This document shows, one piece after another, positions 4,696 through 19,707 of a DNA stretch of 37,485 nt. The position numbers and the translations under genes were made by a program. Each line of letters opens with the position of its first letter. Positions within the stretch are counted from its first letter, which is position 1. A model generated the notes under the pieces. That model saw only the letters and a program-made list of their open reading frames with translations, made no database searches and was not told where the DNA came from. Origin of the DNA: an uncultured Candidatus Saccharibacteria bacterium (GTDB taxonomy: Bacteria > Patescibacteriota > Minisyncoccia > Phycocordibacterales > UBA6065). The DNA lies in NCBI GenBank assembly GCA_964596505.1, contig CAZQUF010000001.1, positions 1-37,485 of the forward strand, in the 5' to 3' direction.

Positions 4696-4810
4696 GAGTC
4701 TCTTCTGCGGAACGTTGTCGGAGCACGCGTCCCGGGTCTGCTGACCCGGGCGCTCCATCTCGCGCCGTCGCGCTCCGATAGTCTCCTCCAACGCTCCACA
4801 GAAGAGACTC
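4696..4810 (-). promoter_or_regulatory. Large structured RNA element in the infB 5' leader (19-bp closing stem plus internal GC-rich hairpins)
   Basis: The arms 4696-4714 and 4792-4810 are complementary. On the minus-strand RNA all 19 positions pair (17 Watson-Crick plus 2 G.U). On the plus strand the same two positions are C/A mismatches. There is an internal 8-bp hairpin, CCCGGGTC-TGCT-GACCCGGG, at 4731-4750. Confidence 0.5.
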
Positions 4811-11001: not shown

Positions 11002-12174
11002 ATGAAAAGGATGCTGCGCACATGGATCGAGGTCGATTATAAGGCGATAGAGAAGAACGCGCGGACGCTCAAGGCTCTCCTCGCCGACGAGGTCGCTATG
11101 ATGGCCGTCGTCAAATCGAATGCGTACGGCCACGGCATGGTCGAGAGCGCTCGCGCGTGCCTCCGCGGCGGCGCGACATGGCTTGGCGTCGACGAAGTCA
11201 CGGAAGCATTCGAGCTCCGTGCCAAGGGCGTCAAAGCGCCAATCCTCGTCCTCGGCTACACGCTTCCTGAACTCTACAAAGAGGCCGCGAAAAAAAAGAT
11301 CTCGCTCACGATCTCTTCTCTCGACTCGCTTCGCGCTCTCGCTAAGACGAGGCTCTCTCCAAAGCTTCGCATCCATCTCAAATTCGATACCGGCCTCCAT
11401 CGGCAGGGCATTCTCGAGACCCATGTTCAGCAGATGGTCCGCATCATATCGGCCAAAGGCTTTCCGGCGATCATCGAGGGCGCCTATACCCACTTTGCTG
11501 TCATGGAAGACCCGATGATGCAGGAATATTCCAAGATGCAGGCGCGCGCTTTCCGCGCCATGGTGGCGAAGCTCAATCAAAAAGGCTTCGCTCCCATCAC
11601 GCATGCCTCAGCGAGCTCAGGCATTCTTTTTTCTAAAGATTTCCATTTCGATATGTCGCGGGCTGGTATCGCGCTCTACGGCCTCTGGCCTTCGCCCGAG
11701 ATCAGGAAATGGGCGACGAGCGTCGGCGATACTTCCGTCGCTCCGAAACTCGTTCCCGCGCTCTCGTGGAAGACGATCGTCACGGAGGTAAAGCTCGTGA
11801 ACAGGGGAGTGAGGGTCGGATATGACCTCACCTACGAGACGAATCGCCCTTCGCGTCTCGCTATCATCCCTCTCGGCTACTGGCATGGGCTTCCGCGGAG
11901 CCTTTCGGGCACGAACGCAAAACCAGGCCTCCAGGTTCTCGTCTGCGGCCATCGCGCGAGCGTCGTCGGCCGCATATCCATGGATATGGCGGCTATCGAC
12001 GTGACCGACATACCGTCCATAAAGCAGGGCGACGAGGTCGTCGTCATCGGCTCGCAGATCGCGGGAGGCAAGACCGAGACCATAACGGCCGAAGAGGTGG
12101 CCGAGAGGGCCGGGACGATCAATTACGAGATCGTTACGCGCATAAACCCTCTTATCCCGCGGATTTCGGCCTAA
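11002..12174 (+). CDS. alr: Alanine racemase
   Basis: The 390-aa ORF has the PLP-lysine motif AVVKSNAYGHG near the N-terminus and an alr-like C-terminal beta domain (...GYWHGLPR...SMDM...). Confidence 0.9.
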   Translation: MKRMLRTWIEVDYKAIEKNARTLKALLADEVAMMAVVKSNAYGHGMVESARACLRGGATWLGVDEVTEAFELRAKGVKAPILVLGYTLPELYKEAAKKKISLTISSLDSLRALAKTRLSPKLRIHLKFDTGLHRQGILETHVQQMVRIISAKGFPAIIEGAYTHFAVMEDPMMQEYSKMQARAFRAMVAKLNQKGFAPITHASASSGILFSKDFHFDMSRAGIALYGLWPSPEIRKWATSVGDTSVAPKLVPALSWKTIVTEVKLVNRGVRVGYDLTYETNRPSRLAIIPLGYWHGLPRSLSGTNAKPGLQVLVCGHRASVVGRISMDMAAIDVTDIPSIKQGDEVVVIGSQIAGGKTETITAEEVAERAGTINYEIVTRINPLIPRISA

Positions 12175-12251
12175 TCACGCCTAATCCGGCTTAGATTTGC
12201 CCTTTTTTGGGGCCTATGATACTATCCTTCGTACAACGTTATTCAATCCCT

Positions 12252-12407
12252 ATGTCCCAAGACCAACTCATCATTCTGCGCAATAAAGAGACCGGCGAGA
12301 CGATCTATACCCGCAAGAACAAGCGCAAGGTAGAGCGCAAGATCGAGCTCAAGAAATACTCGAAGAAGCTCCGAAAGCGCATCACGTTCAAGGAGAGCAA
12401 GAAATAA
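12252..12407 (+). CDS. rpmG: 50S ribosomal protein L33 (Cys-less form)
   Basis: ATG 12252 gives MSQDQLIILRNKETGETIYTRKNKRKVERKIELKKYSKKLRKRITFKESKK, which is an L33 pattern (TxKNKRN..ekLELkKYcp..rkht.hkE.K) without the CxxC zinc ligands. Confidence 0.8.
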   Translation: MSQDQLIILRNKETGETIYTRKNKRKVERKIELKKYSKKLRKRITFKESKK

Positions 12408-12410
12408 AGA

Positions 12411-12432
12411 AAAGCCGCCCTCGGGCGGCTTT
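12411..12432. terminator. Bidirectional terminator between rpmG and the convergent peptidase gene
   Basis: AAAGCCGCC-CTCG-GGCGGCTTT. A/T runs on both sides give a U-tract on either strand. Confidence 0.6.
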
Positions 12433-12451
12433 CTGTAGTGTTCATCATCCC

Positions 12452-13648
12452 TCAGAATTTGTATGCGATCGGCGAGCCTAATCCAGTCACATAGTCGTAA
12501 TGCGCGCGAGCGGTGCAGTAGTAGCCGCAGTCGCCGTTCGAGCCGCTCGTGATGTCGCGGAAGAAGAGCGCGTGGTTCGCGGAGGCTTTGTCTTGGTAGA
12601 GCTTCGTGAGGAAACTCGCGGTCGAGCTCCCCGCGCTCGGTCCGCCGAGCGATTTAATAGCTGCCCACTGTGGCGTGCCGGCGCTCGTGCCGCCCACGAC
12701 GAACCAACCCTTCTGGGATTTTGCCGAGACCGGCTGATGATAGACAGAGTAGCCGGATTTTGGATCGGCGTCGAACGAGACGTCGGGAATAGCTCGCATA
12801 CCCTTGGCCCGAGCGATGCTGTACGACACCTGGAAGCCCGGCTCGCTTTCGTATGCGCTTATGCCTCCGCCGCTCCCAGCCCAGGCTTTTTCAGAACCGA
12901 AAGTCCCGTCTTTGTCGAAGGCGAGGGTCGTGCCGCCGACGGCGATGACCTTAGGCGAGGCAGCGGGCCAGCTCGCTCCGGTCCCGTCGTCTCCCGATGC
13001 GGCGAAGAATGCGATGCCGGTGTCGCTCGATGTCGCTACGGTGAAGTGCGAATCGCTCTTCGTCTCGTCTTTGAATTCTGTTCCGCCCCAGCTCATAGAT
13101 ACAGAGACGACGTCAGGACGGCTGCGGGCATAATCGACGGCCTTAAGAAGCGCTGGTCCAGAATCGGATGCCGCTTCTACGACCAAGATCTTTGCCTTGG
13201 GAGCTATGGCATGGGCCCATTCGCTATCGAGCGCAGTCTCGAGCGACCATCCAGAGACTTCTTTCGTCCCCGCGGTCATAAGATGCTTTTCAAGGCAGCC
13301 GTTCGCTACGGTACAGGCCGGTAGATTGAACTTCGCGTCGAATGCAGCGAGGTCAGACTCGAGCTCTTTGTCGTCGTATGCCTCTATGAGAGCGACGGTC
13401 CCTGAGCCGCCGCTTTTCGGCAGACGGTAGGCGGTCTTTATCTGGTCAGGCGAAAGGCCCTTCGGCGTCGTCGCAGCGCTTCCGAGGACGTGGATAGGGG
13501 ACTTGGCGGTAAAGCCGTCGATACTGACGTTCTTAAGCGTCGCTGCGGACGCGACGGCGGGCGACGGTAAGAGCGAGAGGGTGATAACGAGATCGGTCAG
13601 GACGAATACGAACGTTTTTTGCGAGAGAATATCTTTGATGTGTTGCAT
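12452..13648 (-). CDS. Secreted S8/S53 (sedolisin/kumamolisin-like) serine peptidase
   Basis: It has an N-terminal signal-like hydrophobic segment. It also has PDQIKTAYRL, TVALIEAYD and DLAAFDAKFNLP blocks and the catalytic-serine context VGGTSAGTPQWAA, typical of the S53 family. Confidence 0.7.
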   Translation of the reverse strand: MQHIKDILSQKTFVFVLTDLVITLSLLPSPAVASAATLKNVSIDGFTAKSPIHVLGSAATTPKGLSPDQIKTAYRLPKSGGSGTVALIEAYDDKELESDLAAFDAKFNLPACTVANGCLEKHLMTAGTKEVSGWSLETALDSEWAHAIAPKAKILVVEAASDSGPALLKAVDYARSRPDVVSVSMSWGGTEFKDETKSDSHFTVATSSDTGIAFFAASGDDGTGASWPAASPKVIAVGGTTLAFDKDGTFGSEKAWAGSGGGISAYESEPGFQVSYSIARAKGMRAIPDVSFDADPKSGYSVYHQPVSAKSQKGWFVVGGTSAGTPQWAAIKSLGGPSAGSSTASFLTKLYQDKASANHALFFRDITSGSNGDCGYYCTARAHYDYVTGLGSPIAYKF

Positions 13649-13803
13649 GGCTTTTTTGGCTAGCGGATAATGCCGCCATGCTACTAAATCGAGATTAATT
13701 TTCGCTGAAGATGGAAAAGTTCGGGAACAATATCTAGAAGGACGTCAAATCAGAGCAGTGGACATGCGAACGCTCTTGGGGTAGCATCCCTCTCAGACGC
13801 ACT

Positions 13804-14322
13804 ATGAAAAGCCAATCATTTGTTAGAGAGATATTCGGGGACGCCGAGGCGGTAAAGCGCCTCTATATCAGGGAATTCAAAGAAACCCTCGCCAGGCTCG
13901 GGATGTTCCCCGAGGAATTCGATGCTCGATTGAGAGCGGTCGATCCGCGGGCGGCTGAGTGGCCGACCGTTCGTGAGATGCTCGCCGATCCGAATCTTTT
14001 TACTCCCGAGTACAACCAGCTCGTCGGCCTCGCTTCTCTCGATGATCGAACCGACACGCTCTTTCAGCTCACGGGGACATTCGTCGACGCGAAGCTTCGC
14101 GAGTATCTTTCCGACCCGCAGAAGGTCGATGTATTGCTCTCAGACTTTCAGTCGAAAGCGCGGATCGTCCACATCTCCGTCGAGAATCCCGTGGTTGAGA
14201 TCGAAAAAGCGCTCGTCGGCGAGCCTCTCCGCCCCGGCAGTCCCAATCATATCTCCCGGGAAGAGTGGGCGCTCATCCATCTCTCGAGCCTCATTCTGGA
14301 AGAAGTCGGGAGAGCGGCCTGA
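13804..14322 (+). CDS. Hypothetical protein (172 aa)
   Basis: The ORF has balanced amino-acid composition and is followed by a strong terminator. No motif recognised. Confidence 0.5.
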   Translation: MKSQSFVREIFGDAEAVKRLYIREFKETLARLGMFPEEFDARLRAVDPRAAEWPTVREMLADPNLFTPEYNQLVGLASLDDRTDTLFQLTGTFVDAKLREYLSDPQKVDVLLSDFQSKARIVHISVENPVVEIEKALVGEPLRPGSPNHISREEWALIHLSSLILEEVGRAA

Positions 14323-14340
14323 GTCTGCGGTCGCGTTTCT

Positions 14341-14378
14341 ATACCTTGTCTTTGACAGGGTATTTTCTTTTCTCTTTT
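14341..14378 (+). terminator. Rho-independent terminator
   Basis: A 10-bp stem, ATACCTTGTC-TTT-GACAGGGTAT (one G.U), is followed by TTTTCTTTTCTCTTTT. Confidence 0.6.
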
Positions 14379-14384
14379 GTCCAT

Positions 14385-14804
14385 TTAATAGATTTTTCCT
14401 CCGATGTCTAAAAGCTGGTCTTTTTTCGAGTATATAAATTTGCTGGCGACCTGGGTTATTATGCCCTCTCTGTTTGATCCTATGATCGAGTCGATAGCCT
14501 CTTTTTTGCCGTAATCGTCGCCTATCAATGGAACGGCATATTCCGCTATCGTGCGCCGGGTCACATCCATGAGCCTTGCGCCGAAATCGGCTCCCGCTCC
14601 GCCGACGAGTTTCGCAAGCATAACCTCGTCCGTCTCGTGTTGATCTCCGATCACCCTGCATAGCGCTTCGATCTGGATCGATGCATAGTCAAAGGGCACG
14701 TTTAGCATCGCCTCGATTCTCTCCTGTATGGGCAGGATATTCTCTGGATGTCGCTCGGGGTCAACCATGGAATTAATGGTATCACTAAACCTCTCGAGTC
14801 GCAT
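14385..14804 (-). CDS. Hypothetical protein (139 aa), last gene of the GNAT/phosphatase operon
   Basis: The internal ATG at 14804 (MRLERFSD...) lies 1 nt after the upstream GNAT stop (14806). No motif recognised. Confidence 0.5.
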   Translation of the reverse strand: MRLERFSDTINSMVDPERHPENILPIQERIEAMLNVPFDYASIQIEALCRVIGDQHETDEVMLAKLVGGAGADFGARLMDVTRRTIAEYAVPLIGDDYGKKEAIDSIIGSNREGIITQVASKFIYSKKDQLLDIGGKIY

Positions 14805-14805
14805 T

Positions 14806-15297
14806 TTATCGGAGCTTCTTAAAAAGGGTGAGCTCTTGCGTCTCGTAGCCAGACTTTTCATATGCCGCAATCGCTGCCTCGTTCTTTGCGAGCACGTTCA
14901 ATTTAATGACCTTGATCTCAGGGAACTGTTTGAAATGGCCTTCTGCGGCATCGCTCAGCTTCTTGAATATCCCGCGCTTTCTATATTCGGGATGCGTCCA
15001 TGCGTCCGAAATATAGCCGAAGACATTGATATCCTCAGTCGTCGTGATGCTGTCATCGTGCTCGATGCGGCATGCGATGAAGCCGACGACTTTGTCGCCG
15101 ATCTTCGCTACGAGAAGGGCGCCCGAATTCTCAGCGTTGAGCTTGAGCATGTGATCGAGGCACTTCTCTCCGATCTCCTCGCCGGGAAGGCAGAATTCAG
15201 AGACGGCGCGCTCGGTTTCCTGCAGGTCGATATTGCCGGCGATGACGGCCTGTCTGTCTTCGGGAGCGTAGGGCGAGATCGATATGTCGTCTTTCAT
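14806..15297 (-). CDS. GNAT-family N-acetyltransferase
   Basis: The 163-aa ORF has beta4-alpha3 acetyl-CoA motif context: VVGFIACRIE...YISDAWTHPEYRKRGIFKKL. Confidence 0.8.
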   Translation of the reverse strand: MKDDISISPYAPEDRQAVIAGNIDLQETERAVSEFCLPGEEIGEKCLDHMLKLNAENSGALLVAKIGDKVVGFIACRIEHDDSITTTEDINVFGYISDAWTHPEYRKRGIFKKLSDAAEGHFKQFPEIKVIKLNVLAKNEAAIAAYEKSGYETQELTLFKKLR

Positions 15298-15323
15298 GAA
15301 GATTATAGTAGCACGCGCCGATG

Positions 15324-15941
15324 TTAGTGATTAAACTGCTCTTGCTTGTAAAAATGGGCGTCTTCCGGCTTGCACATCTCGGAAAGGAGAATGACTTCTG
15401 AATTGCCGAAATGGAAGTTCTTGAGCGCTTCGAGCCACTCGATACCATAGAAAGCCGCATATATCATCTTGCCGATGTCGCCGTGGCAGACGAAGAGGAT
15501 GTTGCCGTTCGCATGCTTTGTCCTGATATCGGCGAGAAGCCGCTTTCCACGCAGGATGAGTTCGGGGAACGTCTCTGCGCCGGGGCACGTGATGAAATAG
15601 GTTATCACTTGGGTCTTGAGTATGTTCGGCGCGCAAAGCTTCTCTATATCGGCGATCTTCTCGCCGGTCATGACGCCGAAGTTTCGCTCTATCAGGTCGG
15701 GATGCTTTTCCGGCGTGGCCAGTCCGAGATTATCTGCTATGATCTCCGCAGTGACATACGCGCGCGAAAGGGGAGAAGTGTAGACCTTGTCGAATGTGAG
15801 TCCGAGATTCCTTAAGTGAATTGCAAGATTCTTGGCCTGCGCGATGCCGAGAGGTGTGAGCGACAAATCGCGATGACCGTTCAATATGCCGTTCGCATTA
15901 TCTTCGTTCTGTCCGTGGCGGACGATGTAGATGGTAAGCAT
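15324..15941 (-). CDS. Histidine phosphatase family protein (phosphoglycerate-mutase-like)
   Basis: The N-terminal catalytic motif is IYIVRHGQNEDN (RHG). SPLSRA is present, and the C-terminal second His context is LFVCHGD. Confidence 0.85.
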   Translation of the reverse strand: MLTIYIVRHGQNEDNANGILNGHRDLSLTPLGIAQAKNLAIHLRNLGLTFDKVYTSPLSRAYVTAEIIADNLGLATPEKHPDLIERNFGVMTGEKIADIEKLCAPNILKTQVITYFITCPGAETFPELILRGKRLLADIRTKHANGNILFVCHGDIGKMIYAAFYGIEWLEALKNFHFGNSEVILLSEMCKPEDAHFYKQEQFNH

Positions 15942-15950
15942 GGTAGGTGA

Positions 15951-16397
15951 TTATTTCTTCTCGAGGGAAAGCGACATAAGGAAGTCTGTCGGCCTAGAGA
16001 AGGACGTGAGCTTCTTGAATCCGAAATGTTTAGCGTAGTAGCGCGCGTCCTTCGCCGCGACGGTGAGCTCGATGAGAGCGGCTTCGTCGTTTTTTCGGAT
16101 AGCGCGTATGATCGTTTTAACCAACTTTGTGCCTATGCCACTCCCTTGATATTCCGGTGCGACATTCACCCAAAATATCTGGTAGACGCAATAGTCCATC
16201 CATGACTGCATATAGCCGGCGAAACCGACGACTCGGGCTTTTTCCTCGGCTACGTAATACGTGGGCTTGATGGCCGCATCGCTCCACATGCTTCGTAGCT
16301 CGCGGGCAGAGCTCGCCTCATCTGTTTTCGAGTAGTTTCTTCCGGCGATTGCTGCCGCAGCGCAGATGTCTTTCTTTTGGAGGGGGCGGATTTTCAT
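15951..16397 (-). CDS. GNAT-family N-acetyltransferase
   Basis: The 148-aa ORF has VVGFAGY...FWVNVAPEYQGSGIGTKLVK (the Q/R-x-x-G-x-G/A motif). Confidence 0.8.
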   Translation of the reverse strand: MKIRPLQKKDICAAAAIAGRNYSKTDEASSARELRSMWSDAAIKPTYYVAEEKARVVGFAGYMQSWMDYCVYQIFWVNVAPEYQGSGIGTKLVKTIIRAIRKNDEAALIELTVAAKDARYYAKHFGFKKLTSFSRPTDFLMSLSLEKK

Positions 16398-16487
16398 CGT
16401 TATGCGTTCGATAGATACCTTGCCAAAAACTCGTCTTTGGGAATATAGCCTCTTTCGATCGCTCCATCTACATCCACTTGGCCAATT

Positions 16488-16512
16488 AAAAAAGACCAGC
16501 TTAGGTCTTTTT
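16488..16512 (-). terminator. Terminator downstream of tRNA-Trp copy 1 (symmetrical, could act on both strands)
   Basis: AAAAAAGACC-AGCTTA-GGTCTTTTT. Confidence 0.6.
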
Positions 16513-16519
16513 AACTTGG

Positions 16520-16614
16520 TGCGGGCGATGAGGGAATCGAACCCCCGACAAGGCGTTTGGAGTGCCTCGTTATGCCACTTAACTAATCGCCCGTATTTCG
16601 AATCGCCTTGATTT
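16520..16614. repeat. Direct repeat copy A (95 bp, identical to 17699-17793): whole tRNA-Trp plus 22 bp of its 5' flank
   Basis: Base-by-base comparison shows perfect identity at offset 1179. Imperfect similarity continues for about 40 more bp (to about 16650 / 17828), covering TATAAA and TTCCAA promoter-like hexamers. Confidence 0.9.
16522..16592 (-). tRNA. tRNA-Trp (anticodon CCA), copy 1
   Basis: Manual fold, 71 nt: acceptor GGGCGAT/ATCGCCC, D-arm GTTA-AGTGGCA-TAAC, anticodon loop CTCCAAA, T-arm GGGGG-TTCGATT-CCCTC, discriminator G. Trailer CAC. Confidence 0.85.
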
Positions 16615-16658
16615 TATATCATAAAAAGAGGGGAATTGGAATTTCCTCGTGTACAGAT

Positions 16659-16687
16659 AAAAAAGCCCCGTCCCTTCGGACGAGGCT
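16659..16687 (-). terminator. Terminator of the beta-helix-repeat gene
   Basis: On the minus strand, GCCTCGTCC-GAAG-GGACGGGGC is followed by TTTTTTATC, 12 nt after the stop codon. Confidence 0.5.
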
Positions 16688-16698
16688 CGCTCAAACTC

Positions 16699-17589
16699 TT
16701 AGCGCCAGTTATCGACGTTGACCTTGCCGATACTCGTTGCCCGCATGAATGGCGTATTGACGACGCGGTGGACGTCGATGCCTCCCACGCCTGAGGCGCG
16801 GAGCTCGGCATTCTGGGCTACCCCGTTGAAGGCGATACCGCCGACGCTCGTGGCACTGGCGGTGATCTTCGAGACGTCGCCATCGTCGATGCGGACCTTG
16901 CCGACGCCGTTCGTAGTCACGGTGAGTAGGCCATCGACCTTTTTGACATAGATGCTGCCGACGCTCTCGGCGGTGAGGCTTGCGTCGCGGACTTTGCCGA
17001 TGGTGACGTCGTTCACGCCTGAGGAGGCGACGGTCACTTGTCCCTCGGTATCGCCGATCGAGACGTCCCCGTTCACGTCGGTCACGGTCACGGGCGTTCT
17101 GCGGGGAACGATGACGATGATCTTCGCGGCGGCTTTTTTGCCGATGGAGATCCTGCCGATCGAGATGCCGACCTTGAGGATGGATAGCGCGAATCCGGAC
17201 GGCCGACTCTTCGGGCTGATGAGGACCACCTTGTCGTCGCTTTCGATGCTGAGGTTCTCAACGGCCTTCGGATCGCCTTCGACGGCGACCGTGAATCGGG
17301 GACCGACGGCTACTTCGACTTCGGCGTCGACGCCGGCGATTTTCAGTTCGCTGGCATCGAAGACGCGCGGTTCGAATTTCTGGACCGGGGTCGTTTTCGA
17401 TTCCAGCGCGCCCTTTGCCGTGAGCTTGATGGTCTTGCCGCTCATCGAGACGTCTCCTGTGCAGGTGATTTGACCGGTCGATATGTCGCAGACGCTCCCG
17501 TCGGAGAAGGTGACGCGCGAGTTTTGGATGCCCGTTATCGTCATGCCGGTGAACTCGATTGTCTTGCCGTTCAGGGTCAGTGTTTGCAT
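16699..17589 (-). CDS. Beta-helix repeat protein resembling DUF2807/DUF4097 (putative adhesin-head GIN-type repeats)
   Basis: The 296-aa ORF has a strong SD (AAGGAG, 6 nt, ATG). It contains repeated x-V-x-G-D/G-V-x-I/V units (VNGDVSIGDTEGQVTVASSGVNDVTIG, SVGSIYVKKVDGLLTVTTNGVGKVRID, SVGGIAFNG...ASGVGGIDV). No signal peptide is evident. Confidence 0.6.
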   Translation of the reverse strand: MQTLTLNGKTIEFTGMTITGIQNSRVTFSDGSVCDISTGQITCTGDVSMSGKTIKLTAKGALESKTTPVQKFEPRVFDASELKIAGVDAEVEVAVGPRFTVAVEGDPKAVENLSIESDDKVVLISPKSRPSGFALSILKVGISIGRISIGKKAAAKIIVIVPRRTPVTVTDVNGDVSIGDTEGQVTVASSGVNDVTIGKVRDASLTAESVGSIYVKKVDGLLTVTTNGVGKVRIDDGDVSKITASATSVGGIAFNGVAQNAELRASGVGGIDVHRVVNTPFMRATSIGKVNVDNWR

Positions 17590-17698
17590 TGAGTACTCCT
17601 TTCGTATGGGTTTTAGTTTGTGAGGATCAAATTGCTAATAGCGTACTATCATTTTTAAAAGGATAAGTCAAGTCAGCGGTTTCGCGCTCTTTGCTTGC

Positions 17699-17793
17699 TG
17701 CGGGCGATGAGGGAATCGAACCCCCGACAAGGCGTTTGGAGTGCCTCGTTATGCCACTTAACTAATCGCCCGTATTTCGAATCGCCTTGATTT
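17699..17793. repeat. Direct repeat copy B (95 bp, identical to 16520-16614)
   Basis: See copy A. Confidence 0.9.
17701..17771 (-). tRNA. tRNA-Trp (anticodon CCA), copy 2 (identical to copy 1)
   Basis: The 71-nt sequence is the same as 16522-16592. The trailer is CAG, and no terminator lies between it and the downstream beta-helix gene. Confidence 0.85.
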
Positions 17794-17860
17794 ATAGCAC
17801 AAAAAGGGCGAATTGGAATTTTCGGGCGAGGGTTGCTACTATTGTGTGTATCTATGATAA

Positions 17861-18058
17861 CCCTCAATCCAGACCAGGACCCGGATGAAGTCATTCCTCG
17901 ATGACCTTCGCCGCGACTACGACGGCAAGCGCGTCATGGTCATCGGCCATCGCGCTACCCAGTACGGCATCCAGAATATCATCGAGGGTACGCCCTACGA
18001 GACGCTCGTTTCGATGAAATTCAAGTGGCAGCCGGGGTGGGGGTATCGCATCGGGTAA
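17861..18058 (+). pseudogene. 5'-truncated histidine-phosphatase remnant (C-terminal ~57-65 codons only)
   Basis: The frame is open only from 17861, with ATG at 17885 and TAA at 18056. The translation ...RMKSFLDDLRRDYDGKRVMVIGHRATQYGIQNIIEG... matches the C-terminal second-His block of the phosphoglycerate-mutase-like family. The N-terminal RHG part is absent and tRNA-Trp copy 2 abuts it. Confidence 0.55.
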
Positions 18059-18084
18059 ATAAAAGCCGCTCTCGTGCGAGCGGC
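18057..18084 (-). terminator. Terminator for the 89-aa minus-strand gene
   Basis: The stem GCCGCTC/GAGCGGC has a 6-nt loop. On the minus strand it is followed by TTTTATTT, 10 nt after the stop at 18094. Confidence 0.55.
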
Positions 18085-18093
18085 TCGGTAGTA

Positions 18094-18363
18094 TCATGCG
18101 ACGGCTGTCTCGATTAATTGGAGGCCGAGGGCCTTGAAACGGCGGCGCCAGGAGTCTTGCCACCACTGAGCGCCGGTTCGGAAGGTGGCCATGTCGGTTT
18201 CCACCTTACCGTGGTGGGCGACGAAATGGATGCCCATCCCGTGCGTTCCGTTATCGTGTGGCGTCACTTCTTCGATCCAGCGAGCGCTGAAAAAGTAGCG
18301 GTAATATACCTTCTTCCAGAGCTTGCGAAACATCCGGATTGGACGTGATTTTTGTATGTTCAT
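18094..18363 (-). CDS. Hypothetical small Trp/His-rich protein (89 aa)
   Basis: ATG at 18363 is preceded by AGAGGAAAAT (an SD). It has a terminator downstream. No family recognised. Confidence 0.55.
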   Translation of the reverse strand: MNIQKSRPIRMFRKLWKKVYYRYFFSARWIEEVTPHDNGTHGMGIHFVAHHGKVETDMATFRTGAQWWQDSWRRRFKALGLQLIETAVA

Positions 18364-18474
18364 ATTTTCCTCTGATGCGAAACATATCACAAGCGTCCGT
18401 GTGCCGCAATATGATTCAGATTAAGATCTAGTCCCGATATTTTTAATCTCTTGTCGCGGGTATATACTACCCGC

Positions 18475-19620
18475 ATGGAACCCCTCGCCAACAAAATCCG
18501 CCCAAAAACCCTGAAAGAATTCGTGGGCCAGGAGCATCTGGTCGGCCCGCACGGGCCTTTGCGCATGGCGATTCGGGACAAGCATCTCTTTTCCTTCATC
18601 CTCTGGGGTCCGCCGGGCGTGGGCAAGACGACCTTGGCTCGGATATACGCCAACGCCCTCGATGCCAAGCTCTACGAGCTCTCCGCGGTTTCGGCGGGGA
18701 AGGACGACATCAAGAGGATCATCGACGAGCCGACGCTCCTCGATCCCCGGCCGAAGCTCCTCTTCCTCGACGAGATCCATCGCTTTAATAAGGCTCAGCA
18801 GGACTTTCTCCTGCCCTTGGTCGAGACGGGGAGGCTGACCCTCATCGGCGCGACGACCGAGAATCCGAGTTTCGAGGTCATATCGGCATTGCTCTCGCGT
18901 TGCCGCGTCTTCGTCTTGGAGAGTCTTTCGGAGAAAGACATCCAGAAGATCATCGTCCGGACCAAAATAAAAGTGCCCAAGGACGCCATTGAGTGGCTCG
19001 TGACCCTGGCCAACGGCGACGCGCGCATCGTCCTCTCGGCTCTCGAGAATACCAAGCAGATCTACGGCTCCATCACTCGCGAGAATCTCAAGAATGCCTT
19101 CGAGCACGCGTTCATCCGCTTCGACAAGAAAGGCGAGGAGCACTACGACACCATATCGGCTTTCATAAAAAGCATGCGCTCGGGCGACGCCGATGCGGCC
19201 ATCTATTACCTCGCCCGCATGATCGCCGGCGGGGAAGACCCGAAGTTCATCGCCCGGCGCATGGTCGTCTTCGCTTCCGAGGATATCGGCCTCGCCCAGC
19301 CGACGGCCCTCGTCGTAGCTAACGCGGTCTTTCAGGCGGTGGACACCATCGGCCTGCCCGAAGCTCAGGAGAATCTGGCGCACGGCGTGGCGTATCTCGC
19401 CCTGGCCGCTAAGGATCGCTCGGCATACGACGCATATATGGAAGCTCTGTCCGACGTCAAAGCTACCGGCAATCTGCCGATACCGCTCCGTATCCGGAAC
19501 GCCCCGACCAAGCTCATGAAGAATCTCGGCTACGGCAAAGGCTATGACAAATACGACAAAGAGAGCTATCTGCCGGATACATTGAAAGGGAAGAAGTATT
19601 TGAGGCGGCCGAAAAAGTGA
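18475..19620 (+). CDS. rarA: Replication-associated recombination protein A (AAA+ ATPase RarA/MgsA)
   Basis: MEPLANKIRPKTLKEFVGQEHL, Walker A GPPGVGKTTLA, LFLDEIHRFNKAQQD, GATTENPSFEV and the C-terminal MgsA domain (HYD.ISAFIKS.RGSD.DAA.YYLARM) are all present. Confidence 0.9.
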   Translation: MEPLANKIRPKTLKEFVGQEHLVGPHGPLRMAIRDKHLFSFILWGPPGVGKTTLARIYANALDAKLYELSAVSAGKDDIKRIIDEPTLLDPRPKLLFLDEIHRFNKAQQDFLLPLVETGRLTLIGATTENPSFEVISALLSRCRVFVLESLSEKDIQKIIVRTKIKVPKDAIEWLVTLANGDARIVLSALENTKQIYGSITRENLKNAFEHAFIRFDKKGEEHYDTISAFIKSMRSGDADAAIYYLARMIAGGEDPKFIARRMVVFASEDIGLAQPTALVVANAVFQAVDTIGLPEAQENLAHGVAYLALAAKDRSAYDAYMEALSDVKATGNLPIPLRIRNAPTKLMKNLGYGKGYDKYDKESYLPDTLKGKKYLRRPKK

Positions 19621-19682: not shown

Positions 19683-19707
19683 TGGAGACGACGGGAATCG
19701 GACCCGC
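19683..19707 (-). other. tRNA 3'-end-like fragment (T-arm plus acceptor 3' strand), possible att-site remnant
   Basis: The minus strand reads GCGGG-TCCGATT-CCCGT-CGTCTCC-A. This is a T-stem/loop one substitution from the GGTTCGATTCC consensus, plus 7 nt and a discriminator. No matching 5' acceptor strand (GGAGACG) occurs within 100 nt, so it is not a complete tRNA. Confidence 0.35.

Follow-up and report, generated by a model that had tools for sequence, protein, structure and literature searches.

A single gene, P0001, coding for a 296-residue protein predicted to adopt the Toastrack (DUF2807) fold, lies between two directly repeated copies of tRNA-Trp in a 37,485-nt stretch of DNA (hereafter the window: positions 1 to 37,485 of the forward strand of contig CAZQUF010000001.1, assembly GCA_964596505.1) from an uncultured Candidatus Saccharibacteria bacterium. 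The source metagenome-assembled genome (MAG; G000 in our comparisons) comprises 877 kb in 111 contigs and is about 88% complete. The reading that we favor, to which we attach about even confidence, is that the Toastrack gene was acquired horizontally and inserted at tRNA-Trp, that a target of approximately 138 bp containing promoter, leader and tRNA was duplicated in the process, and that no mobility gene of its own was involved. The structure is real and rare; it adds an example to a class of rearrangement already known, at a hot spot beside a tRNA, rather than representing a new mobile system or mechanism.

A repeat search of the window aligns positions 16515-16614 with 17694-17793 (100 nt, 99% identical with one mismatch, spacing 1179) around a perfect, directly oriented core of 95 bp at 16520-16614 and 17699-17793; shuffled versions of the window did not contain even one 23-nt match. 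Read in the sense of the tRNA, this core begins with 22 nt of leader, continues through the 71-nt tRNA and ends 2 nt into the trailer. ARAGORN places a tRNA-Trp(CCA) on the minus strand at 16521-16592 (copy 1) and 17700-17771 (copy 2), and Rfam RF00005 recognizes both at the slightly narrower limits given in Table 1, with 59.9 bits each against a threshold of 29. The discriminator, read from the sequence, is G73 in both copies and the CCA end is not encoded; judged by cloverleaf score (above the Rfam threshold), anticodon (CCA) and G73, both genes are functional-looking as far as their sequence can tell. Upstream of the core the copies remain alignable for another 35-40 nt or so, ending near 16652 and 17829; this stretch differs by 4 substitutions and 2 single-base indels, and both copies retain the TTCCAA -35 and the extended -10 (TGnTATAAA) of the putative promoters P1 (copy 1) and P2 (copy 2). 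The whole duplicated unit measures about 138 bp, from roughly 10 nt upstream of the -35 to roughly 7 nt past the 3' end of the tRNA, and the insert between the repeats is 1,041 bp long and holds the single gene; none of its other open reading frames (ORFs) has a family match. A preliminary description of this DNA had reported the 95-bp duplication of tRNA-Trp with 22 bp of its 5' flank, the weaker similarity extending about 40 bp further with both promoter hexamers, one intervening gene with a strong Shine-Dalgarno (SD) sequence and a terminator, the doubling of a whole functional-looking tRNA and its promoter with no recombinase inside, and the lack of a terminator after copy 2, all of which the repeat search, ARAGORN, Rfam, Pfam and RNA folding bear out.

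We considered whether a de Bruijn loop through the shared tRNA had been traversed once, with the gene belonging to another molecule or strain. The contig ends of the MAG overlap by exactly 55 nt; the assembly was therefore made with k=55, below the length of the 95-bp repeat, and the loop was resolved heuristically. Against such an artefact, an independent MEGAHIT contig assembled at k=141, which exceeds the repeat length (ENA ERZ27245399, k141_384969; L034), reproduces window positions 12315-17858 over its full 5,544 bp with 1 mismatch, and contains in one piece the flank, P2, tRNA, Toastrack gene, P1, tRNA, a GNAT gene and further genes. The single mismatch falls at 16536, at T-loop position 59 of tRNA copy 1 (G in L034, T in the window), and this single-nucleotide polymorphism makes the two copies distinguishable in the strain represented by L034. 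Beside the repeat, moreover, the insert has a diverged promoter copy of its own, and a collapsed repeat cannot produce one. Since the k=141 contig reproduces the whole arrangement, we regard an artefact as largely refuted and hardly credible. The chance of a random difference falling inside tRNA-Trp copy 1 is about 2-3%, and the difference at 16536 could stem from weaker selection on a copy that is redundant, or from a conversion event in one of the strains. A Logan contig from SRR8464962 is 100% identical to window 17764-19545. Its start lies 30 nt into the perfect repeat, exactly k-1 for k=31, which is where a branch point at the repeat end would place it. Exact look-ups of the neighboring proteins led, for GNAT, to L034 and to a 706-bp contig that breaks off within the tRNA, and, for a phosphatase remnant (see below), to the Logan contig; MgsA had no record, and no empty-site contig was among the results. 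JGI metagenome contigs and GTDB genomes were searched for exact occurrences of the species-specific leader, with 0 matches.

We compared the locus with 60 relatives, 21 of them from the same genus, and with a separate sample of 400 genomes of the order. tRNA-Trp is present in single copy, beside mgsA, in 32 of the 60 relatives, with no match in the other 28, and none (0/60) has a homologue of P0001; the expectation that relatives would carry a single tRNA-Trp without the cassette is thereby borne out. About 100 of the 400 genomes in the order sample have a full-length match to tRNA-Trp, and two full copies occur only in the genome studied here. In the genus, the ancestral gene order runs from a large gene through tRNA-Tyr, a homologue of the window gene at 11002-12174, a variable 1-4 kb, tRNA-Trp on the minus strand and its promoter to divergently oriented mgsA/rarA on the plus strand, and the 3' side of tRNA-Trp is a hot spot of variation throughout the genus. 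A subgroup of the genus (G011, G014, G016, G017 and G018) has the promoter AAATTCCAATT...GTGCTATAAAATCAGGGC in common with both window copies, and both repeat copies, promoter included, align to the single promoter-tRNA of these genomes. Relative to the subgroup consensus, copy 1 has changed GTGC to ATGA and copy 2 has lost 1 nt at two places. Upstream of P2 the resemblance to the ancestral spacer between tRNA and mgsA persists, whereas P1 adjoins the terminator of the inserted gene, so that copy 2 retains the native 5' flank. Copy 1 probably retains the native 3' flank, because it is followed by its own terminator and by a histidine-phosphatase gene that is also found just downstream of tRNA-Trp in G011.

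The protein family is itself almost missing from both the order and the phylum. Profile searches gave no full-length match among 300 genomes of the order and one among 400 genomes of the phylum; a word-indexed search of 5.8 billion clusters returned only the query itself, and HMMER against 1.84 billion representatives returned 528 distant homologues, the best of them 39% identical, which is the top identity among 15 billion proteins. One homologue is annotated from a Patescibacteria MAG. No tRNA adjoins the homologue at the loci examined (L035-L038, L057 and L058), and a phage tblastn with P0001 found no relative. It is because of this distribution that we judge the Toastrack gene to be foreign to the order and probably horizontally acquired. 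Foreign composition was also tried as a signal and gave none, the GC content of its third codon positions (GC3, 0.805) lying within the range of core genes (mgsA 0.79).

Insertion with long target duplication was reportedly described by Nobusato et al. in 2000. In the cases surveyed by Furuta, Abe & Kobayashi 2010 (NAR; PMC2853133), direct repeats of 46-423 bp, present as one copy at the empty site, flank inserts that lack mobility genes, mostly in naturally competent species. The present locus has the same features: the insert is absent and the target single-copy in related genomes, which are other species rather than strains; the flanking direct repeats exceed 30 bp, at about 138 bp lie within the published range, and both align with the single-copy empty site of the relatives; the insert is far shorter than 20 kb; neither the gene list nor Pfam shows a transposase, integrase or recombinase in it or beside the repeats, the one tyrosine recombinase (PF00589) of the genome being on contig C74; and the host genome encodes both RecA and ComEC, the latter a competence gene. 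According to the insertion reading, one foreign gene would have entered the tRNA-Trp locus, a hot spot of gene content, with a complete promoter-leader-tRNA unit doubled alongside. Where tRNA-Trp is single-copy and essential, only an event that leaves an intact transcription unit would survive; here two units would have survived.

The divergence between the repeats is uneven: 6 of 33 promoter columns differ against 1 of 100 core columns (Fisher p = 0.0009), and the same comparison confined to presumably unconstrained columns gives p = 0.03-0.10. The distal part of the 22-nt leader is conserved in no other species examined and differs from species to species, and its identity in the two copies, in the presumed lack of constraint, points to gene conversion between them or to a recombination junction. 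We suggest that the 95-bp core is held identical by purifying selection on the tRNA and probably by RecA-dependent gene conversion between the copies.

The main rival of the insertion reading, which we consider rather unlikely, is a Campbell-type single crossover, after natural transformation, with circularized DNA from a related Patescibacterium that carried the Toastrack gene with its own promoter and tRNA-Trp. Recombination through the conserved tRNA would have left a hybrid tRNA unit to either side of the insert, and P1 would be foreign. A single crossover yields exactly a direct repeat of the homologous segment around the insert; the sharp fall in identity from 100% to roughly 80% at the -10 box would fit a junction between resident and imported DNA; the tRNA-Trp bodies of some congeners agree at 92-100% of positions (G008 100%, G011 92%); and ComEC and RecA are at hand. 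However, the 22-nt leader is the same in both copies while its distal part differs in all other species, so that a foreign donor would be expected to differ unless conversion had followed; a Toastrack gene stands beside a tRNA in no genome of the order or phylum sample, and no such donor is known; P1 and P2 both belong to the same genus subgroup, which lacks the gene; and the circular form of the donor would itself need explaining.

With regard to timing, the two strains available for comparison differ by 1 base in 5,544, whereas the promoter halves of the repeat have diverged by ~20%, from which we infer that the event is old: the insertion would be much older than present strain diversity, and the arrangement would have been stably kept over a long period. 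The 95-bp identity could in principle permit scarless deletion or amplification, and the preliminary description had proposed a cassette that can be excised or amplified; the available assembly fragments give no sign of either, every one of them being consistent with one arrangement, and the ~20% divergence of the promoter halves likewise speaks against it. A bolder version of this idea, which we rate as a long shot, is that the Toastrack gene, its terminator and the promoter-tRNA-Trp unit together form an integrase-free, homology-targeted cassette that enters by a RecA-mediated single crossover and leaves by recombination between the tRNA copies. If true, such a cassette could enter the tRNA-Trp locus of any related competent Patescibacterium without ever disabling the essential single-copy tRNA, and tRNA genes would be portable homology arms through which ultra-small bacteria without conventional mobile elements exchange genes.

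Capture of the gene by tandem duplication alone, which had also been proposed, does not fit. If R denotes the repeat and B the sequence between the copies, simple tandem duplication leaves R-B-R-B, head to tail and with nothing new but the junction; in the window, R-B-R gives way to unrelated sequence, none of the relatives has B, and the gene is foreign to the order. A related history, which we find improbable, would have the Toastrack gene already in place as the first gene after tRNA-Trp, with the ~138-bp unit copied later to its far side, either as a dispersed duplication or as a tandem one followed by gene loss. Same-strand protein genes do follow tRNA-Trp closely in G018 (72 bp downstream) and G011 (168 bp), gene content downstream of the tRNA varies between species, and the promoter divergence implies that the duplication is not recent. 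On the other side, this history requires two events or an unusual 138-bp copy-paste, there is no trace of a second copy of the gene, a different and native-looking terminator directly follows copy 1, and the postulated intermediate occurs in no relative.

tRNA genes are classical integration sites for genomic islands with phage-type integrases, such as the tycheposons of Prochlorococcus. The present locus resembles these in having its insert at a tRNA gene, within a tRNA-adjacent hot spot and between direct repeats that contain the tRNA; it differs in having no integrase, one gene and no sign of mobility, and in that the attachment (att) core of such islands usually spans the part of the tRNA between anticodon loop and 3' end, whereas the repeat here takes in the whole gene with its leader and promoter. 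Very doubtful, in our estimation, is a remnant or satellite of such an integrative element, mobilized by a recombinase in trans and with the tRNA copies as attL and attR, even though some att sites are known to span a whole tRNA (PMC2853133). In its favor the neighborhood is a hot spot with further scars, among them a truncated phosphatase gene at 17861-18058, and G136, of the same order, has a classical partial repeat of the 3' end of tRNA-Trp. That repeat (C1:233149-233325) matches the 3' end of the window tRNA-Trp (positions 44-71) exactly over 28 nt, lies 79 bp downstream of a full tRNA-Trp, and is the classical signature of an integrase-type insertion or its remnant, unlike the whole-gene duplication described here. 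Speaking against the integrative element, no integrase is found in or near the insert and the sole tyrosine recombinase of the genome lies on another contig; the repeat reaches ~60 bp past the 5' end of the tRNA into the promoter with decaying identity, unlike a recombinase core; and the cassette turned up nowhere else in protein or DNA searches, with no relative above 39% identity and no phage match. A T-arm/acceptor-like fragment at 19683-19707 (minus strand), tried as an att partner, has no match to tRNA-Trp or to the other tRNAs of the window.

Several points weigh against insertion with long target duplication itself. No empty-site allele of the same species was found; the comparators are other species with ~80% identity in MgsA, so that the direction of the change and its having happened in one step are inferred across species. 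The diverged promoter halves, which set this locus apart from the published cases, could mean that one copy arrived with the foreign DNA, as in the Campbell-type crossover, and gene conversion is suggested only statistically, at p = 0.03-0.10 for neutral sites. Published cases carry restriction-modification cargo, a screening criterion of the surveys, rather than a Toastrack/DUF2807 gene, and the target here is a complete promoter-tRNA unit, so that an otherwise single-copy tRNA is doubled. The core-like GC3 means that the foreignness of the gene is argued from distribution, not from composition. Finally, co-transcription, promoter activity and tRNA function are predictions.

The arrangement of predicted signals (Table 1) suggests how the locus may be transcribed. 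P1 and P2 are taken to be promoters on the strength of their conservation. P2 would drive tRNA copy 2, downstream of which RNA folding shows no significant structure (z +0.8) and no terminator; transcription would read through into the Toastrack gene and stop at its strong terminator, tRNA copy 2 would be released by RNase P and 3' processing, and the mRNA would retain its own SD. P1 would drive tRNA copy 1 and end at the native terminator. Co-transcription of tRNA and Toastrack gene is therefore plausible, because copy 2 lacks a terminator. The spacer between them holds a weak promoter-like TTGACT-N17-TAGTAC with an upstream TG (17671-17643) that may give the Toastrack gene a promoter of its own; a consensus promoter scan of the spacer reported nothing at its thresholds, this element included. 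The arrangement recalls mixed tRNA-mRNA operons such as thrU-tyrU-glyT-thrT-tufB of E. coli, in which promoter, tRNA and a protein gene with its own SD follow one another with no terminator between, and it predicts a co-transcript cut by RNase P and 3' nucleases; it differs in that the co-transcript is a prediction and the arrangement would be a by-product of insertion, not a conserved operon.

Table 1. Features of the tRNA-Trp/Toastrack locus, in window coordinates (dG, folding free energy in kcal/mol; z, its z-score)
Feature	Position	Strand	Basis
Intrinsic terminator after copy 1, hairpin and U-run, AAAAAGACC-TAAGCT-GGTCTTTTTT	16482..16519	-	Inverted repeat; dG -16.4, z -2.97
tRNA-Trp(CCA) copy 1, 71 nt	16522..16592	-	ARAGORN, Rfam RF00005
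5' leader of copy 1, 22 nt, same in both copies	16593..16614	-	Repeat search, alignment with relatives
Putative promoter P1: -10 TGATATAAA 16613-16618, 17-nt spacer, -35 TTCCAA 16636-16641; diverged part of repeat	16613..16652	-	
Terminator of Toastrack gene, 11 pairs then U-run	16663..16688	-	dG -22.1, z -3.95
Cargo gene P0001, 296 aa, DUF2807/predicted Toastrack	16699..17589	-	Pfam PF10988, AlphaFold, Foldseek, 528 distant homologues
Spacer from copy 2 to gene, 111 nt, with SD AAAGGAG 17596-17602, no terminator	17590..17700	-	
tRNA-Trp(CCA) copy 2, same sequence as copy 1 within window	17701..17771	-	ARAGORN, repeat search, Rfam
Leader 17772-17793 and putative promoter P2: -10 TGCTATAAA 17791-17796, 16-nt spacer, -35 TTCCAA 17813-17818	17772..17829	-	
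Truncated C-terminal third of second histidine-phosphatase paralogue, adjoins P2	17861..18058	+	Pfam His_Phos_1 positions 121-169, E 0.0036

The protein encoded by the insert had been described as DUF2807/DUF4097-like, with which the Pfam match (DUF2807, PF10988; 29.2 bits against a cut-off of 24.2, residues 88-273) and structure prediction agree; NCBIfam gave no match, and DUF2807 is the only Pfam family that matches the insert. The contrast between GC3 and the GC content of second codon positions (0.805 against 0.455) shows genuine coding. An AlphaFold model (AF2) built on 49 homologues has a mean predicted local distance difference test (pLDDT) of 88.4, and Foldseek with this model finds 3LJY, 4OPW, 3PET, 3LYC, 4YGU and 4QRK at probability 1.0, with a template modeling score of up to 0.75 on the target; these are solved DUF2807 'putative adhesin' beta-helices. 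The model indicates a right-handed beta-helix of the Toastrack fold with a family-specific N-terminal beta domain. Homologues measure about 300-320 residues and have in common an N-terminal motif, NG..VYSDK...TF.DGSWCDV.TG, and a C-terminal GNW; P0001 itself ends in ...NW. It belongs to a sparse Toastrack subfamily of ~300 residues set apart by these motifs, with at most 39% identity to anything known. The Toastrack fold unifies DUF2154, DUF4097 and DUF2807 and has been argued to serve as an intracellular, membrane-proximal scaffold (PMC11237479), although a Bacteroidales member acts as an adhesin (PMC10949514). Like the proteins of the fold that are predicted to be intracellular, P0001 has no hydrophobic signal-like N-terminal stretch visible by eye, no predictor having been run. 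In contrast to the Toastrack proteins compared (LiaG, YvlB and VraT; the DUF2807, DUF4097 and DUF2154 members; and Bacteroidales 3LJY, 4OPW and 3PET; PMC11237479, PMC10949514), it lacks a neighboring PspC, LiaF or two-component system and a transmembrane anchor: no phage-shock-protein (PSP)/Lia context (PspC, LiaI-LiaF-TM, two-component system) surrounds the gene, whose neighbors are tRNAs, GNAT, histidine phosphatase and mgsA. P0001 is most likely an intracellular beta-helical scaffold.

On the other flank, ~620 bp of extra DNA that includes the phosphatase remnant separates the tRNA promoter from mgsA, and is missing from relatives with the same promoter; the remnant marks a further rearrangement between tRNA and mgsA. 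ORFs of the intact phosphatase paralogue (177-283 residues) occur in G015, G047, G031, G026 and G027 at 61-69% identity, and the identity is 56-69% with G023 and G019. We also tried the remnant as a piece of the full-length histidine phosphatase at 15324-15941 and found no similarity; it is derived from a different paralogue. Between the conserved gene at 11002-12174 and tRNA-Trp, the 1-4 kb interval (12175-16480 in the window) has a different gene content in every congener examined; in the window it contains genes at 12452-13648 and 13804-14322 and a four-gene operon of GNAT, histidine phosphatase, GNAT and a 139-residue protein.

Other features of the window and genome were recorded along the way. 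A small orphan ORF at 18094-18390 on the minus strand (79-98 residues) matches no Pfam or NCBIfam family and was also picked up by gene calling on the Logan contig; directly behind its stop stands a good intrinsic terminator on the same strand, at 18086-18063. A dispersed, GC-rich and structured repeat family of about 75-110 nt, with the core ...GGAGMACGCGTCCCGGGCCTGCTGGCCCGGGCGCTC...CTCCGAGAGTCTCC, has at least 10 copies in the genome: one at 4719-4791 of the window, others at C5:15142-15228, C32:3743-3829, C6:5032-5111, C4:8656-8745 and C27:7524-7613, and further ones on contigs C99, C7, C33, C40, C93 and C107. Each copy is flanked by a copy-specific inverted repeat that resembles a covarying outer stem, no Rfam family matches at its gathering score, and the family may be an undescribed non-coding RNA or a miniature element. 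ARAGORN also reports a 'tRNA-Stop' at C19:6735-6808, which with its TTA anticodon would read UAA. Two further ARAGORN calls, at C27:9865-9941 and C6:17135-17203, are odd tRNA-like genes whose anticodons have 2 or 4 nt.

Patescibacteria, or Candidate Phyla Radiation (CPR) bacteria, have tiny genomes, about 0.9 Mb in size, in which tRNAs are single-copy and recognizable mobile elements are scarce, and how they gain genes is poorly understood. Against this background, the locus would represent an assembly-verified case in which one foreign gene was gained beside an essential tRNA without a recombinase, the promoter-tRNA unit being doubled as collateral. If the insertion reading is right, it would show that insertion with long target duplication also occurs in CPR bacteria and with cargo other than restriction-modification systems, at a tRNA-Trp/mgsA interval that the genome comparisons present as a genus-wide hot spot, and the two copies would offer a natural case in which to follow the concerted evolution of duplicated tRNAs and the co-transcription of a tRNA with an mRNA.

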